From an uncultured bacterium (GTDB taxonomy: Bacteria > Methylomirabilota > Methylomirabilia > Rokubacteriales > CSP1-6): a stretch of 37,295 bases of DNA. The DNA lies in the NCBI GenBank assembly GCA_964372605.1, contig CAYJUC010000002.1, positions 1 through 37,295 of the forward strand. The letters run 5' to 3'. The position numbers and the translations under genes are program-made. Below, piece by piece: positions 84-11,923 of the stretch (positions within the stretch are counted from its first letter, which is position 1; the number at the start of each line of letters is the position of its first letter). The notes beneath the pieces are model-generated. The model did no database searches, was not told the DNA's origin, and saw nothing but the letters and a program-made list of their open reading frames with translations.

Positions 84-1076
84 TCACAGGTCAATCCCCA
101 CGGCGCGTCTCACCTCGTCCATCGTGGCCTGAGCCACCTGGCGCGCCCTTTTCGAGCCTTCGCGGAGGATCTCGATCACCTCGTGAGGCTGTTCCACGAA
201 CCGCTGGCGACGCTCACGGATCAGGGCAAGGGGCGGGAGGAGGTGCTTCAGGAGGACATCCTTGCAGTCCAGGCACCCGATGCCGGCCGTCCGGCACCCC
301 TCGGCGCAGGCCCGCCGCTCCCCCTCCGGGGTGAAAATCTTGTGGAGGTCGAAGACCGGGCACACCTCCGGGTTGCCCGGGTCGCTCCGGCGCTTGCGCG
401 CGGGATCGGTCATCATCGTCCGGATCTTGGGGGTGATGACCTCCGACGGGTCCGAGAGATAGATGCAGTTATCGTAGCTCTTGGACATCTTCCTCCCGTC
501 GGTGCCCGGCACCTTCGGGATCAGGGTGAGCTTGGCGGCCGGCTCAGGGAAGACCGGCCCGAAGGCGCTGTTGAACCGCCGCGCGATCTCCCGCGTCAGC
601 TCGATGTGCGGGAGCTGGTCGACGCCCACGGGAACGTGCCTGGCTTTATAGATCAGGATGTCCGCCGCCTGGAGCAGCGGGTACCCGAGGAGACCGTAGG
701 ACGGCGAGTCGAGCCCGAGCTGCTCGATGGTCTCCTTGTAGGTCGGGACGCGCTCAAGCCAGGCGACCGGAGTCACCATGGAGAAGAGGAGGTGAAGCTC
801 CGCGTGCTCGGGGACCAGGGACTGGACAAAGATGGTGGAGCGCTCCGGCTGGAGCCCGGCGCCGAGCCAGTCGGCCGCCATCTCGATGGTGTTGGCCGGG
901 ACCGCCGCCGCCTGGGAGTAATCGCTTGTCAGGGCGTGCCAGTTGGCCACGAAGAAGAAACAGTCGTAGTCCTGCTGGAGCTTCACCCAGTTGTCCAGCG
1001 CTCCCAGGTAGTTCCCCAGGTGCAGCTTCCCGGTTGGCCGCATTCCCGAGAGCACGCGATCCAGTGTCATGGCCAT
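84..1076 (-). CDS. trpS: Tryptophanyl-tRNA synthetase (class I)
   Basis: 330-aa ORF from ATG 1076. It has a HIGH-type motif (TGKLHLGN) near the N-terminus and KMSKS at residues 196-200. Length and overall pattern are typical of bacterial TrpRS. Confidence 0.95.
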   Translation of the reverse strand: MAMTLDRVLSGMRPTGKLHLGNYLGALDNWVKLQQDYDCFFFVANWHALTSDYSQAAAVPANTIEMAADWLGAGLQPERSTIFVQSLVPEHAELHLLFSMVTPVAWLERVPTYKETIEQLGLDSPSYGLLGYPLLQAADILIYKARHVPVGVDQLPHIELTREIARRFNSAFGPVFPEPAAKLTLIPKVPGTDGRKMSKSYDNCIYLSDPSEVITPKIRTMMTDPARKRRSDPGNPEVCPVFDLHKIFTPEGERRACAEGCRTAGIGCLDCKDVLLKHLLPPLALIRERRQRFVEQPHEVIEILREGSKRARQVAQATMDEVRRAVGIDL

Positions 1077-1097
1077 GGTCCGTTTTATGGGCGCGGC

Positions 1098-1349
1098 TCA
1101 GGCATACATCAGCCGCGCTTTCGGTTCAGGGATCGGACGACCCTGTTCCTTTGCCGTTTCGATCCATTCTTGGATGATCACCTCCACGCTGGCCAGCGCC
1201 TGCCGGTACGTCGGCCCATCGGCCGCGCAGCCCGGCAATTCCGGCACCTCGGCAATGTAGGCGTGATCTTTCTCACTCCAGTAAATGATGATCTCGTATT
1301 TCCACTTACTCCTATCAGCTCCCCCGACCAGGCGGTATTTCACGATCAC
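1098..1349 (-). CDS. hicB: HicB-family (UPF0150-like) antitoxin, short form without an obvious DNA-binding tail
   Basis: 83-aa ORF with the HicB hallmark YIAEVPELPGCAADGPTYRQALASVEVIIQEWIE...GRPIPEP. The start is GTG 1349, or the second GTG at 1343, which is better spaced from GAGGG. Confidence 0.85.
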   Translation of the reverse strand: MIVKYRLVGGADRSKWKYEIIIYWSEKDHAYIAEVPELPGCAADGPTYRQALASVEVIIQEWIETAKEQGRPIPEPKARLMYA

Positions 1350-1448
1350 CCCTCGTACCTGTTTTACCCCATCTGCGCCACTGCGCCTAATTATCGATTA
1401 GCCGGCATTGTTCTTCTTCGACCCCGGGTTAACTTCTCGAAGTGGAAG

Positions 1449-1739
1449 TCACCGCCTTCTGGCCGAAGACCTGCCGCCCTGAAGTTTCTCCAGGACCCAG
1501 CGCCGGATAAGGATTCCCTGCCGGACGCCTCTCGCCTGCGCGATCCGCTTCACCTCTTTAGCTTCCTCCGGTCGCAAGCGAACCGTGACAATAGCTTCCG
1601 GCCTACGCTCGAAAACCGCTTCGGGAACCTCCTCCAATTGGTCTTCGAACTCGGTCAGGTCGTGCGTCTGCCAGAACCGGGACAGTTCCTCGATCGAGTC
1701 GGTTTGCGGAAGCCTCTGATTTTTCATCGCCTTTTCCAT
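1449..1739 (-). CDS. brnA: BrnA/CopG-type (ribbon-helix-helix) antitoxin
   Basis: 96-aa ORF. The N-terminal FWQTHDLTEF motif and the C-terminal VTVRLRPEE...LIRRWVLEKL pattern match the BrnA antitoxin layout. Its ATG (1739) lies inside the 3' end of the upstream BrnT-like reading frame. Confidence 0.8.
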   Translation of the reverse strand: MEKAMKNQRLPQTDSIEELSRFWQTHDLTEFEDQLEEVPEAVFERRPEAIVTVRLRPEEAKEVKRIAQARGVRQGILIRRWVLEKLQGGRSSARRR

Positions 1740-2008
1740 TGGCTGAATCGTCGCTTCTCCCTCTCCGTCATTGGACGAGCCATCACCGGAAAGCCTTTTC
1801 CATCAGAAAACTGGATCACAACACAGAACTAGCGTCGCCCAGAGGCGGTTTGTCCCAGAACGTAATAGACCGGATTCTTCCCTGAGGCCTTAGCGCGCCG
1901 CACCCAGGCTCCGCCAACGCAGACGTCTTCAAACTCCTCAGGTTGCACTCGGTGTCTTGCGATATGATCAACCCGGTCTTGTGTCCAAATGAACTCATGG
2001 ATTTTCAC
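1724..2008 (-). pseudogene. BrnT-like (DUF497) toxin gene interrupted by an in-frame TAG
   Basis: My own translation from GTG 2008 gives VKIHEFIWTQDRVDHIARHRVQPEEFEDVCVGGAWVRRAKASGKNPVYYVLGQTASGRR, then TAG (1831..1829), then FCVVIQFSDGKGFPVMARPMTEREKRRFSQWKRR and TGA (1726..1724). Both halves together resemble a full BrnT-type toxin. It is absent from the ORF track because each piece is under 60 aa. Confidence 0.7.
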
Positions 2009-2011
2009 CCC

Positions 2012-3679
2012 TCAACTGTACAACACCTCCGATGGCTTCGATGGAAGCCAGACCACCTGCGCAGCCTGGCGGTCCCTGCTGGCAAATGCATGCCTACTCA
2101 GCAGGCCCAAGGCTTCGGGGACTAGTTCCCTGCCACGAGCATCAAGGCCACGATAAAACGCCGACTCGCGGCGTCCTGAGCCACGTTGGGCAAACAGCTT
2201 CTTGAGTATCGTGAGCAGAACCTTCGTGCCTAAAGGAAGCCCAAGAGCGAGTATCGCGTTGGTTGTCTGAGCGGGATTCTCGGAGGTGTCAAAGGTACAG
2301 TCGAGAAACTGCTGGGGAGGCATGTCGCTTAACCCAGTGCGCCCGTCCACGGATCCGAAGTGACATCGAACAAAGCTCGGGAGGAGCGCGACAGACGTAT
2401 CCGCCGGCAGATCCAGCCGGCCAACGATGCAATCTTGGAATTGAACGCGAGCGAGACTGCCAGCAAATCCTTCGAGGAGGATCTCTGGGATGAGCACTTC
2501 CTTAACAAAGATATCTGTACTGTCGCATGACGCACCTGCATGAAACAACGTCAAGACGATGTCGGCGCATAACCTCTCCGACTTCGGCAGCTCGTGCACG
2601 CGCCGGAGAGCGGCCTCGATCTTCCCTTGCTTGATTCCCGCTGAGTAACACTTGCACGCCGCCACCTCGGCCCCGAGAGACCACAGGGAACTCTGCCAGG
2701 CTTCGCTTTCCAGAAGCTGACCATAAGGGTTGTCTATGAAATCAGCGATCGTGCTACCTCGGGCAGCCTCAGCAAAATCCTCGTCAATGAAAACGCGAGC
2801 GCCGCCTTCCGATGAGTGACCACCCAAACCGGGTAACCGTTCGAACTCGCTGACGTTCAGGAAGGAGAAGCTCTCGCCGAGGTTGAGACTTATCGCCATT
2901 TCCCTGACACTGTCGAAGAAGTAGGCCCTCCCGGCGAGCAGCACTCCGAAGGATGGCGGCGTGTCTCGCAAGAAGGCGCGGACAAGTTCCATGGACCGGA
3001 ATCGAAGGTCCCGAAGTTTTTTCATTTTCCCAGCCCAACCAGCTGTTGCTATCTCGTCAAAGCCGTCCAAGAGTGGGAGGGCGAGACCGGCACGCCACCC
3101 TCGAACGAGGTCGGACGGGCGCTGGAAGCCGACCAGAACGTACTTCTGCCCTTTTAGCAGGGCTGAGCATATGTCATCCACCGAGAGGAGCGAGCCGTTT
3201 TTGTCGACGATGTCGAGAGGTACGTAGTCGAGTGCGATTCGGGCCACACCGGTTTCTGGATCCCGAACGCTGCCGAACGGGTAGTTCTCACGAGCCGACA
3301 GGTAGGACTTCGCGTCCACGAGTCGAGAGCGGAATTGATCGAAGGAGACTGCGACAATCCGACCCTGCACCTTGCGAAACACGGCTCGCTGGTCCGCTGT
3401 TGGTTCCTGAAGGGTTACGAACCATCCCTTAACGAACTTCTGCGGATATCGTGCGCCAAGCTTTCGGACTAGTTTCTGGAGTTTATCAAGGTCTTCGTCT
3501 GCTTTTCGCTTGGATCGCGAGGTCGTGCACTCCAGGATGTGAACGAACTCTTCGGTTTCGAACACTCCGTCGCGTTCCCGGCCCTCTTCAATCGAGGCGC
3601 CGCCGAACTCGGCTGACGGCCACAGCAGCCGCGCGATGCGCCTAACCTCGCCTTCGAAGTCCCTGTCACTCGCGAACAT
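2012..3679 (-). CDS. Hypothetical 555-aa protein: restriction-endonuclease-like N-terminal domain plus degenerate STAND/NACHT-like core lacking Walker A
   Basis: Long ORF in the sense direction of the neighbourhood, with lower GC than its flanks. The N-terminus FEGEVRRIARLLW...GRERDGVF...VHILECTTSRSK resembles PD-(D/E)xK-type effector domains. LPLLDGFDEI (res 201-210) looks like a NACHT Walker B, preceded by KYVLVG, but no GxxxxGK[ST] occurs anywhere. Function is inferred only from pattern recognition. Confidence 0.75.
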   Translation of the reverse strand: MFASDRDFEGEVRRIARLLWPSAEFGGASIEEGRERDGVFETEEFVHILECTTSRSKRKADEDLDKLQKLVRKLGARYPQKFVKGWFVTLQEPTADQRAVFRKVQGRIVAVSFDQFRSRLVDAKSYLSARENYPFGSVRDPETGVARIALDYVPLDIVDKNGSLLSVDDICSALLKGQKYVLVGFQRPSDLVRGWRAGLALPLLDGFDEIATAGWAGKMKKLRDLRFRSMELVRAFLRDTPPSFGVLLAGRAYFFDSVREMAISLNLGESFSFLNVSEFERLPGLGGHSSEGGARVFIDEDFAEAARGSTIADFIDNPYGQLLESEAWQSSLWSLGAEVAACKCYSAGIKQGKIEAALRRVHELPKSERLCADIVLTLFHAGASCDSTDIFVKEVLIPEILLEGFAGSLARVQFQDCIVGRLDLPADTSVALLPSFVRCHFGSVDGRTGLSDMPPQQFLDCTFDTSENPAQTTNAILALGLPLGTKVLLTILKKLFAQRGSGRRESAFYRGLDARGRELVPEALGLLSRHAFASRDRQAAQVVWLPSKPSEVLYS

Positions 3680-3753
3680 AGGGCCTTACTTCAAAGCGAG
3701 CCACGTCACTCCCAATAGTACCATCAGAACGAGCTTCTTCATGGTGGGTGGTC

Positions 3754-3759
3754 AGCATA
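3754..3759 (-). promoter_or_regulatory. Candidate -10 element (TATGCT) inside a 13-mer shared with the clpC upstream region
   Basis: The minus strand reads CTGGGATATGCTG (3765..3753), 74 nt upstream of the 555-aa ORF ATG. There is a 12/13 match to CTGGGATATACTG upstream of clpC. No convincing -35 was found. Confidence 0.25.
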
Positions 3760-3842
3760 TCCCAGTCAGAAACTTCGAACGACCGCAGGAATTCTTTCCG
3801 GCTGGCAGGACTGGGCAAGGTCTTCAGAGCCCCCTACCCGAT

Positions 3843-4631
3843 TTAGCTCCGTTCCGAAGTTCCTTCCCCGGTCGGGCGAAGCTGGCGCTCCCAGACCTTC
3901 GCCGTGCGGAGAAACACATAGTGAGCATAGAGGACGGCCAGGACCAGCCCACGCCATCCGTCGAGGAATCCCCCGTGCAGCAGGTACATGGCGAGAAACC
4001 GCCAGAGCGGGCGGAGTATCAGATCCCCCATCCCCACCCGCCTGCCGCGCCCGAGGAGATCCTCGGCCGCCAGCGTCGAATACCGGTTGGAGCGCTGGAC
4101 AAATTCCTCCAGGCTCCGGTAGCTCTCGTGAACAAGCGGGGACGCGAGGCGAGCCACGCGGCCGTTGACCGTGACCGACTCGTGCACGACCTGCTCGACG
4201 AACCGCCCCCTCCCCCGCCTGAACAGCCGGAGCTGGGAATCGGGATAGAGGCGCCCGTGCCGCACCCAGGCGCCCCAGAAGAAATTCTTCCGGGGGATCA
4301 GGTAGCCGTCGGCGGGCCCGTCGTTCCGGATGATCCGCTCGATCTCGTCACGAAGCTCTCGGGGCACCCGTTCATCGGCGTCGAGGGAGAGGATCCACTC
4401 CCGCGTGGCCTGATCGAGGGCGAAGTTCTTCTGGAGCGGGAATCCCGGCCAGGGCCGGACCCAGATCCGGTCGGTGAACTCGCGCGCCACCTGGACGGTC
4501 TTGTCGGTGGACTCGGCGTCCACCACCACGATCTCCTGGGCCCAGTCCACGCTTTCGAGGCATGGGCGCAGCCGTTCCTCCTCGTTCCAGGTGATCACGA
4601 TCACGGTGAGCCCGCTTTGGGGTGCGTTCAT
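3843..4631 (-). CDS. Family 2 glycosyltransferase (LPS-core KdtX/WaaE-like)
   Basis: LTVIVITWNEEERLRPCLESV.WAQEIVVVDAESTDKT...SLDADERV pattern and a hydrophobic C-terminal tail typical of this GT2 subgroup. The start is set at ATG 4631 (MNAPQSG), because the longer ORF-track N-terminus runs through REP-like hairpins. Confidence 0.85.
   Translation of the reverse strand: MNAPQSGLTVIVITWNEEERLRPCLESVDWAQEIVVVDAESTDKTVQVAREFTDRIWVRPWPGFPLQKNFALDQATREWILSLDADERVPRELRDEIERIIRNDGPADGYLIPRKNFFWGAWVRHGRLYPDSQLRLFRRGRGRFVEQVVHESVTVNGRVARLASPLVHESYRSLEEFVQRSNRYSTLAAEDLLGRGRRVGMGDLILRPLWRFLAMYLLHGGFLDGWRGLVLAVLYAHYVFLRTAKVWERQLRPTGEGTSERS
4619..4631. repeat. Direct repeat copy 1 (plus strand GGGGTGCGTTCAT; minus strand ATGAACGCACCCC), containing the GT2 start codon
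   Basis: An exact 12-nt match (GGGTGCGTTCAT) to 4808..4819. The flanking CTT(T)G also matches, with one indel. Confidence 0.9.
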
Positions 4632-10805: not shown

Positions 10806-11923
10806 GGCGATGCGCCGACGTCTCGGAGGGCGGCCCGGTAGAACGCCTCGACCTGGGAGACCTGGCGTCCCGGGCTGAACTCGCGTTCCACGCGCGCCTT
10901 CCCGGCGGCTCCCATGAGCCGGGCTCGCCCTGGATCGGTCAGAATCGACAGGAGCCCGCGGGCCAGCTGCTCCGGCCGGTCCTCTGAGAGGAGCAGACCG
11001 GTCTCGCCGTCCACCACGGTTTCCGGGAGCGCGCCCACTTTCCGCGCGACCACAGGTTTTCCACACGCCATGGCTTCCAGCGCCGCCCGGCACGACTCAT
11101 CCGAGCCCGCGCCCATCAGGGCGAAGCAATCCATGGCCGCGAGGACCGCCGGAAGATCTTGGTCTCTGTACCCGGCGAAGATGATCTCGCGCCGGAGCCC
11201 GAGCTCCGCCACCAGGGTCTCCAGCTTCGGCCGGGCCTCCCCTTTCCCGACCAAGAGGAGCTTCGCCTCGGGAAGCTCCCTGGTGAGCTCCCGGAATCCC
11301 CGGATCAGAAGCTCGTGGCCACGGTTATGAGCCAGGCGGGCCACTGACCCCACCACCGGCGACGAGCCGAGGCCGAGCTCCTGGCGGATCGCGCTTCCAT
11401 CCTCGCGGAGCTTGAACCGATCGAGATCCGCCGTCCCCCCGATGAACCGGAGGCGGGTCTCGGGGATCCCCGCAGCCCGGCAGCGATCCTCGATCTGACG
11501 GCTCACGGCGATCACCCCGTGGGTCCGACCATAGGGGAGGGCGCCCGACCATCGGGGCTTCACCGCGCGCAGGTTGTGGAAGGTCCTGAACAGCACCGCG
11601 CGCCCGCGCGCGAGCGCGCCGAGCCAGTGATCGTGGGAGTGGTGAGTGTGAACGACCCGGACCCCTTCCGCCCTGACCAGCCTTCGCAGGCGGACGAGAT
11701 CCATGATGAGGTCCCGGGGGGCGAAGCGGTTGTTCAGAGAAAGATCGGGGAGGAGCGGGATCCCGGCTTCCCGGGCCTTCTCCTCGAATCGCTCGCCGCG
11801 GATCAGACCGAGGAGCACGCGGTGCCCCCGGTCCCGGAACCCGCGGGCCAGCTGGATCACGGGGTCGGCGCTCCCCGTCCACCAACGGTTGGCGGCGAGG
11901 TGAAGGATCGTCAGACGGCTCAC
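10802..11923 (-). CDS. GT4 glycosyltransferase
   Basis: 373 aa from GTG 11923 (GTGA overlap). Motifs: ILHLAANRWWTGSADP... and SDESCRAALEAMACGKPVVA. Confidence 0.85.
   Translation of the reverse strand: MSRLTILHLAANRWWTGSADPVIQLARGFRDRGHRVLLGLIRGERFEEKAREAGIPLLPDLSLNNRFAPRDLIMDLVRLRRLVRAEGVRVVHTHHSHDHWLGALARGRAVLFRTFHNLRAVKPRWSGALPYGRTHGVIAVSRQIEDRCRAAGIPETRLRFIGGTADLDRFKLREDGSAIRQELGLGSSPVVGSVARLAHNRGHELLIRGFRELTRELPEAKLLLVGKGEARPKLETLVAELGLRREIIFAGYRDQDLPAVLAAMDCFALMGAGSDESCRAALEAMACGKPVVARKVGALPETVVDGETGLLLSEDRPEQLARGLLSILTDPGRARLMGAAGKARVEREFSPGRQVSQVEAFYRAALRDVGASP

Follow-up and report, generated by a model that had tools for sequence, protein, structure and literature searches.

A probably inactivated REase–NACHT gene in a low-GC islet of an uncultured Rokubacteriales bacterium

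The window, that is, the whole stretch of 37,295 nucleotides (nt) analyzed here (positions 1 to 37,295 of the forward strand of contig CAYJUC010000002.1, assembly GCA_964372605.1), comes from an uncultured bacterium of the Rokubacteriales (Methylomirabilota) and carries at positions 2012-3679 a minus-strand open reading frame (ORF) for a protein of 555 amino acids (aa). This ORF appears to be the remnant of a gene for a bacterial NLR-like protein with a restriction endonuclease (REase)-type head and a NACHT module, and its origin, damage, and surroundings are the subject of this text. An earlier examination of the DNA letters alone (the sequence-only reading) had singled out the ORF on the basis of three observations in its translation, and the ORF and each of the peptides quoted for them were found where they had been placed. 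The features of the ORF are as follows.

2012-3679, minus strand: ORF of 555 aa with an ATG start, read as an internally deleted and C-terminally truncated remnant of a ~757-aa REase–NACHT (bacterial NLR-like) gene
3326-3679, minus strand: PD-(D/E)xK-fold domain, aa 1-118, from the AlphaFold2 model, Foldseek matches, and invariant columns
3128-3139, minus strand: junction of deletion 1, aa 181-184 (V-L/V-G), with the break between 3134 and 3133, from the alignments
3050-3073, minus strand: Walker B sequence LLDGFDEI, aa 203-210, fitting the NACHT signature D[GAS]hDE, with columns L204-I210 invariant in the family alignment
2837-2848, minus strand: junction of deletion 2, aa 278-281 (E-F/E-R), with the break between 2843 and 2842, from the alignments
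2270-2512, minus strand: four β-strand repeat units of ~23 aa, aa ~390-470, with the motif h-x-F-x-x-C-x-h-x-x-h-x-h, a putative sensor region
2027-2275, minus strand: helix-helix-helix-β-β (winged-helix-like) region, aa ~469-551, ending at a breakpoint after KPSE
2012-2026, minus strand: four foreign codons (VLYS) and a TGA stop, which substitute for the last ~24-28 residues of the family (YRRRALSILAAP..D..)

In the 555-aa protein, the N-terminal peptides FEGEVRRIARLLW, GRERDGVF, and VHILECTTSRSKRK lie at aa 8, 33, and 46, respectively, KYVLVGFQRPSDLVRGWRAGLALPLLDGFDEI spans aa 179-210, and the C-terminal peptides VQFQDCIVGRLDL, FVRCHFGSVDG, and FLDCTFDT lie at aa 412, 436, and 458. A search of the whole protein for the Walker A pattern [AG]xxxxGK[ST] found nothing, and even the tripeptide GK[ST] is absent, so that the lack of a Walker A motif noted earlier was borne out, as was the NACHT-style Walker B, which occurs as LLDGFDEI and is invariant in the family; the signature D[GAS]hDE defines NACHT modules (Kibby et al., bioRxiv 10.1101/2022.07.19.500537). 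The TGA stop (2012-2014) stands 3 nt before the GTG (2008) of a BrnT-like ORF, and the G+C content (GC) is 0.572 in 1369-3806 versus 0.673 in the rest of the window, which agrees with the earlier description of an ORF 3 nt from toxin-antitoxin genes in a low-GC islet. GC at third codon positions is 0.65 in the ORF versus 0.8-0.9 in host and neighboring genes. No sites were returned by a promoter and terminator scan of 1000-4000, and no tRNA genes were found in the window.

Searches with the window protein itself were little informative. A Pfam scan gave no NACHT match even at E<=1, the PADLOC and NCBIfam libraries matched neither the window protein nor its intact relatives at the family level, and a PDB sequence search gave no match, with the family profile matching only the P-loops of ABC ATPases. 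Relatives, on the other hand, are numerous. A protein search covering 5.8 billion proteins returned 644 of them, with E-values down to 4e-256, the best ~110 being 740-800 aa long and mostly carrying a precomputed Pfam NACHT match. When 1.84 billion cluster representatives were scanned exhaustively with HMMER, 857 representative clusters were returned, 328 of them at E<=1e-30. Almost all are 750-770 aa long, and in almost all cases the match to the query falls into exactly three stretches, with breaks at query residues ~184 and ~279. The closest relative, P0002, is 73% identical over the common columns (E = 4e-256), and the window protein is 60-73% identical to relatives that exceed the Pfam NACHT threshold, such as P0002, P0015, and P0096 (29.5, 30.1, and 33.3 bits, respectively, against a cut-off of 26.7).

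An AlphaFold2 model of intact P0002, built with 109 aligned relatives, reached a pLDDT of 87.8 and a pTM of 0.85. Its best PDB matches are NLRC4, NLRP9, NLRP3, and NAIP5 (E 6e-9 to 7e-6), followed by matches to Cdc6/ORC, an Avs5 filament, Apaf-1, and CED-4, and the intact family is therefore assigned, at the level of modeled structure, to the NACHT-clade STANDs. The NACHT relationship proposed from the letters is thus upheld by both the Pfam scores of the relatives and the structural matches. In the intact layout of ~757 aa, a nuclease head (aa 1 to ~118) is followed by the NACHT module (~180-560), composed of a nucleotide-binding domain (NBD), helical domain 1 (HD1), and a winged-helix domain (WHD), and then by a C-terminal region of β-repeats and winged-helix-like elements.

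Against this layout, three lesions can be read in the window copy from an alignment with 15 relatives and a codon-level alignment with P0002. Deletion 1 removes 56 aa in frame after K-Y-V-L, corresponding to P0002 residues 183-238, and takes out the sequence from VGDYGAGKSAT (Walker A, which is GDYGAGKS(A/T)T in relatives) through ...ERHARQ; on the P0002 model, this amounts to the P-loop, helix α1, strand β2, and the next two NBD helices. In the closest relatives, the deleted segment is bordered on either side by GTnGGn (Val-Gly); the window keeps one copy of this 6-nt microhomology, and flanks of this kind are, as far as the sequence can tell, the signature of slippage or of a microhomology-mediated deletion. 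Deletion 2 removes 123 aa in frame between NVSEF and (Q)RLPGLGG, corresponding to P0002 residues 336-458, and with them the last NBD helix, HD1, and most helices of the WHD in the model. Finally, homology ends after KPSE, with the C-terminal cut removing the terminal helices of the P0002 model, and the VLYS codons and stop mark the breakpoint of a rearrangement that joined the gene to the adjoining brnTA cassette.

A tblastn search against the window gave two high-scoring segment pairs, divided at deletion 2, and neither the deleted segments nor the missing C-terminal tail was found elsewhere in the window by tblastn. With P0002 residues 183-238 and 336-458 absent, the window copy has no complete NBD-HD1-WHD module. 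The alignment with full-length homologues that had been proposed as a check thus showed a 56-aa in-frame gap after VLVG that includes Walker A, as anticipated by the suggestion that a P-loop segment had been lost in frame. As to the extent of the damage, the sequence-only reading was right about the P-loop but had missed both the 123-aa deletion and the C-terminal truncation.

The N-terminal head is preserved. An AlphaFold2 model of aa 1-182 of the window protein (pLDDT 83.5) has the topology α-βββ-α-β-α-β, with the elements H5-19 / β / β38-41 / β45-52 / H57-77 / β82-89 / H95-104 / β108-112. The top 25 Foldseek matches of the head are almost all PD-(D/E)xK nucleases (E ~3e-3, probability ~1.0, TM 0.4-0.47), among them Can2, Cdn1, Card1, R.BspD6I, Nt.BspD6I, AF1548, Mus81-Eme1, MspJI, BstEII, and EcoO109I. 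Profile matches are weak: Pfam Card1_endonuc scores 15.8-17.2 bits (E 0.004-0.011), below the cut-off of 26.4 bits, and the PADLOC profiles Csx1 and CARF_PDDEXK, for which PADLOC gives no curated cut-off, score 11.6-15.7 bits (E 0.0015-0.03). The family-invariant residues D37, E50, T52, A60, and K66 are all kept in the window copy. D37 and E50 sit on β2/β3, and the position of the ExK lysine is occupied by T52 (E50-C-T52); K59, nearly invariant, and K66, invariant, are both on the helix that follows. The PD-(D/E)xK-type head recognized in the translation thus finds support in the predicted topology, the Foldseek nuclease matches, and the weak Card1_endonuc and CARF_PDDEXK profiles, and a restriction-endonuclease fold is supported by the model, with nuclease activity being putative.

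For the C-terminal half, no Pfam family matched the last 276 aa at E<=10. The strands assigned to the repeats in the P0002 model are 569-572/575-580, 591-594/597-602, and 614-616/619-624, plus 641-645, and the winged-helix-like elements are H648-656, H662-675, H699-708, E712-717, and E720-726, an H-H-H-β-β arrangement that in the model is consistent with a winged-helix tail. Pentapeptide repeats, to which the short recurring stretches had been likened earlier, found no support, as PF00805 had no Pfam match at E<=10 and the recurring unit is ~23 aa long and forms strand pairs in the model. The β-repeat and winged-helix-like region is probably the sensor.

Whether the ORF is a relic or a selected variant was addressed by comparison with the family. 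Walker A, in the form [AG]xxxxGKS, is present in 109 of 109 full-length relatives of a first set and in 126 of 126 of a second, giving ~235 inspected proteins, all of roughly 750-770 aa. Nine full-length representatives of the second set fail the strict pattern G-x4-GK[ST]; as all nine have AxxGxGKS, a conserved P-loop-less sub-lineage was ruled out. Nor were the deletions of the window copy found in any of ~270 inspected proteins out of the 857 clusters. Because every full-length relative inspected has Walker A and none has these deletions, there is no P-loop-less lineage to which the window protein could belong. The sequence-only reading had left two options, a fresh pseudogene-like relic and a naturally NTPase-dead or NTP-independent variant; the latter found no support, with no relative having the same architecture, and the widespread homologues of equal length and architecture that would have spoken against decay did not turn up among the ~270. 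The former was borne out, the three lesions being unique to the window copy. The remaining short proteins of the family are truncated at the N or C terminus or, in two cases, look damaged in other ways: P0258 is gapped internally in the region of P0002 residues 267-385, and the P-loop region of P0365 is scrambled in a manner that suggests two frameshifts. Decay may thus not be rare among genes of this NACHT family.

The pairwise dN/dS (ratio of nonsynonymous to synonymous substitution rates) against the closest relative is 0.07, with dS saturated at 2.49 and the terminal branch not resolvable, and this value reflects a long functional past. Because dS was saturated, conserved columns and relative rates were used instead. 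Of the 86 retained columns with a conservation of at least 95%, two differ in the window protein, the family mean being 2.0; one of the two is E280, which stands at the deletion-2 junction in place of a 99%-conserved Q. Tajima relative-rate tests with two sisters and six outgroups indicated no acceleration in 11 of the 12 comparisons (e.g., 46 versus 47 unique changes), and the exception (sister P0002, outgroup P0006, 56 versus 35, p = 0.028) would fail a multiple-test correction. As the retained parts show neither excess substitutions nor rate acceleration, the damage appears from the sequence to be recent. The reading frame would then survive because the lengths of the two deletions are divisible by three and there has been little time for further decay.

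The consequences for the protein can be judged from the modeled structure and from other NACHT proteins, in which Walker A mutagenesis has been performed: Walker A lysine mutants of bNACHT01 lose phage defense (Kibby et al., bioRxiv 10.1101/2022.07.19.500537). On these grounds, the 555-aa product would presumably be incapable of nucleotide binding, switching, and oligomerization, and would be a non-functional relic. Overall, with a probability of roughly 85%, the ORF derives from a horizontally acquired gene for a bacterial NLR-like (NACHT-clade STAND) protein of a widespread, single-gene kind and was inactivated only recently. Several points weigh against this. The 555 codons are uninterrupted and both deletions are in frame, for which the chance would be ~1 in 9 if deletion lengths were random; the family-conserved residues of the head and C-terminal region are intact, which fits continued selection on a shortened protein; and the sequence, a singleton, and its deletions are known from one metagenome assembly alone.

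As to the alternatives, the lesions might be artefacts of assembly or binning, with reads collapsed or mis-joined in the contig and an intact ~757-aa NACHT gene in the real genome, and indeed the window protein forms a singleton cluster from one NCBI contig. Such an error is improbable, however, as it would have to account for six independent lesions in four adjacent genes, three in the NACHT gene and three more in hicA, hicB, and brnT. Moreover, the repeats within the ORF are only imperfect matches of 14-25 nt, too short to collapse an assembly graph and none of them at the junctions, the 6-nt junction microhomology is far below assembler k-mer sizes, and the deleted segments occur nowhere in the rest of the window. 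An origin unrelated to NACHT proteins, with DGFDE and the REase-like head being chance resemblances, might be argued from the missing Pfam NACHT match and the purely sub-threshold nuclease matches of the window protein, but deserves practically no credence; it is ruled out by homology (60-73% identity to proteins above the Pfam NACHT threshold), by the Pfam scores of those relatives, and by the structural matches of the P0002 model, including NLRC4 and NLRP3 at E 6e-9 to 7e-7.

A further possibility is that the protein still functions in its shortened form and independently of NTP: the head would be coupled directly to the sensor, or the protein would act as a dominant-negative or decoy regulator of a full-length paralogue, or would serve, through translational coupling, as a leader for the downstream antitoxin. 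The intact ORF, the in-frame deletions, and the kept conserved residues speak for it, and there are precedents both in STANDs that function with degenerate Walker motifs, such as KpAvs8 (PMC13581612), and in the inactive STAND domains known in conflict systems. We nevertheless consider it very unlikely. The architecture is unique among the proteins inspected and nothing points to a lineage under selection; deletion 1, rather than taking out a whole domain, runs through the core β-sheet of the NBD; the conserved C-terminal tail is lost as well, and the adjacent genes are plainly decaying. The known degenerate cases, moreover, are point-degenerate with the structure retained. It is correspondingly very doubtful that the 555-aa product is expressed in a new switch-free role, for example as a constitutively monomeric nuclease–sensor fusion or as a dominant-negative or decoy of full-length NACHT proteins; if it were, the two in-frame deletions would be selected rather than accidental.

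Among the known systems closest to the gene is the clade 7 'REase+NACHT' protein WP_147454831.1 of Corallococcus sp. AB004 listed in Table S1 of Kibby et al., with the REase at 4-116 and NACHT at 183-690. Compared by boundaries, these coincide with the REase fold of the present family (aa 5-118) and with its NBD β1/Walker A from ~179-185, and Corallococcus is also represented in the family (P0096); the window copy differs in having no P-loop, HD1/WHD, or C-terminal tail. In clade 6, bNACHT25 and bNACHT32 of Escherichia coli consist of an REase (2-178), NACHT (185-558), and NCH1 (575-747), are antiphage by experiment, and degrade DNA when triggered, with DNA degradation by the REase effector of bNACHT25 described in PMC12169576. 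The family resembles bNACHT25 (752 aa) in its three-part layout, its size of ~750 aa, and its REase-type N-terminal effector. The similarity is nonetheless remote and limited to the NBD, which alone aligned in an hhalign comparison of the family with bNACHT25 (probability 83%, E 9e-6, 21% identity; first 399 of the 752 bNACHT25 residues); the nuclease heads did not align, and the window copy, with its deletions, is presumably inactive. When an E. coli homologue was sought at the DNA level to link the family with bNACHT25, no match was found. Just before the NBD, an FGSV motif occurs as the nearly invariant PFGSVRDPETG in the family and as FFGSVGINN in bNACHT25, and may be a conserved element coupling effector and NACHT module.

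Avs/AVAST proteins (e.g., Avs3, PDB 8dgc) likewise combine a C-terminal sensor, a STAND NTPase acting as an oligomerization switch, and an N-terminal nuclease, and Avs3 and Avs5 are among the structural matches, at rank 14 for the P0002 model and rank 45 for the N-terminal head. They belong, however, to other STAND clades, are much larger, and have TPR-type sensors, whereas the present family has the NACHT-specific DGFDE Walker B. Card1, Can2, and Cdn1 are comparable in their nuclease domain only, where they provide the best structural matches and the sole profile matches of the head; unlike them, the present family has no CARF domain, its scores are sub-threshold, and the ExK lysine is a threonine. 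KpAvs8 (PMC13581612) and the inactive STAND domains of Kaur et al. also have no canonical nucleotide-binding motif, but they represent conserved lineages with point-degenerate motifs and a complete fold, in contrast to the window copy, a singleton whose fold has lost ~180 residues. If the intact relatives work in the manner of bNACHT25 and Avs proteins, their C-terminal part would sense a phage-derived trigger, the NACHT module would then bind NTP and oligomerize, and the clustered nuclease heads would cut DNA, aborting the infection.

The genes next to the NACHT relic, and the insert to which they belong, are as follows.

1724-2008, minus strand: BrnT-like toxin gene with an in-frame TAG at 1829-1831, the frame continuing to a stop at 1724-1726 and overlapping the brnA start
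1449-1739, minus strand: BrnA/CopG-type antitoxin gene, apparently intact (Pfam CopG_antitoxin, 31.7 bits versus a cut-off of 28)
1098-1368, minus strand: hicA remnant fused in frame to hicB (alignment with relatives L053 and L055; Pfam HicB_lk_antitox match)
1369-3806, no strand assigned: foreign cassette of 2,438 bp comprising the NACHT relic, the interrupted brnT, and brnA (blastn versus L053, synteny, and GC of 0.572)

When the BrnT-like gene is read through, the Pfam BrnT_toxin match of its product spans the stop (residues 14-84, E 6.5e-4, 20.4 bits against a cut-off of 34.5), and the 59-aa fragment alone has no Pfam match. With its toxin ORF interrupted, the locus does not hold an intact BrnT-BrnA pair; the BrnT-like gene is probably a toxin pseudogene adjoining an intact antitoxin gene. 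In the neighboring hicA-hicB fusion, hicA is down to its last ~20 codons, and the hicB ATG has been destroyed by a 1-nt deletion near 1313 (GAT-AGG in the window, AATGAGG in L053 and L055), the ORF now starting from GTG 1349.

TrpS homologues place the host in Methylomirabilota (NC10/Rokubacteria). In L056 and L057, whose TrpS is 84-88% identical, the genes GT9-GT2-trpS are directly adjacent, and in L053, a closer relative (94% aa and 90% nt identity), the order is GT2-hicA-hicB-trpS. Because close relatives have GT2 and trpS either adjacent or separated only by hicAB, window 1369-3806 is taken to be a foreign insert. By blastn, L053 2036-3398 corresponds to window 1368-1 and L053 732-1541 to window 4616-3807, and the insert takes the place of 494 bp of L053 that hold the hicA promoter and most of hicA. 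The GT2-trpS junction (window 1077-3842) is thus seen in three states, namely empty, with hicAB, and with hicB, brnTA, and the NACHT relic, which suggests that it is a recurrent landing site for conflict genes in Methylomirabilota. A search for repeats found none that would explain the deletions or mark the ends of an island. The islet at 1.1-3.8 kb is a stack of insertions, most of them decayed, and in this sense a 'graveyard' of conflict genes.

What has been found is an ordinary decaying defense gene, not a new kind of system, and its biological weight as one more pseudogenized defense gene is small. It does provide a worked example of how a single-gene STAND dies, by a microhomology-flanked in-frame deletion and by truncation through an incoming toxin-antitoxin cassette, and a lesson for annotation, namely that when an intact ORF shows a Walker B without a Walker A, relatives should be aligned before an NTPase-dead variant is called. 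The intact family, which joins an REase fold, a NACHT module, and a β-repeat/winged-helix region in 857 clusters from many phyla, is of more interest than the window copy. Its loci are found in Acidobacteriota, Nitrospirota, Myxococcales, Gemmatimonadota, Bacteroidota, Chloroflexi, Streptomyces, Kitasatospora, Alpha- and Gammaproteobacteria, and others, and the genes often stand among housekeeping genes or adjoin toxin-antitoxin pairs. A conserved partner gene was looked for at 35 family loci and none was found, and for this reason the NACHT family is regarded as a single-gene system. At four of the 35 loci (L009, L031, L032, and L048, from Manganitrophaceae and three Streptomyces), an oxidase gene of the FAD_binding_4/BBE type lies between 85 bp and ~3 kb downstream of the NACHT gene, a neighborhood that probably reflects coincidence or lineage synteny. 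At an Acidobacteriota metagenome contig (CAWGPK010000004.1; L007 10001-12185), the ORF ends at 11542 after 513 aa and the tblastn match continues to 12185, so that this gene is apparently interrupted; a frameshift or a stop codon could be the cause, as could an error of long-read sequencing.

The family seems to spread as foreign DNA. The gene of the closest intact relative, P0002 (L001 6814-9090), has a GC of 0.57 versus 0.65 in its flanks and stands alone between gatB and a glycosyltransferase gene. A full-length member, annotated as hypothetical, is encoded by the temperate Pseudomonas phage Haddon (PQ571161.1, CDS0030; L058 4980-7280); its 766-aa product is 35.5% identical to P0002 over 95% of the latter, and its gene lies near an excisionase gene and adjoins a reverse-strand gene for a 384-aa protein that may be an integrase. 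Among the intact family members, this homologue is a tractable candidate. A distant member (27.7% identity) is found on a 37-kb plasmid of Erwinia persicina (NZ_CP146502.1; L059 4980-7217), where it is flanked by a gene for a pentapeptide-repeat protein and by an integrase gene with a Phd/RelE pair. Locations on a phage and a plasmid would be typical of defense cargo.

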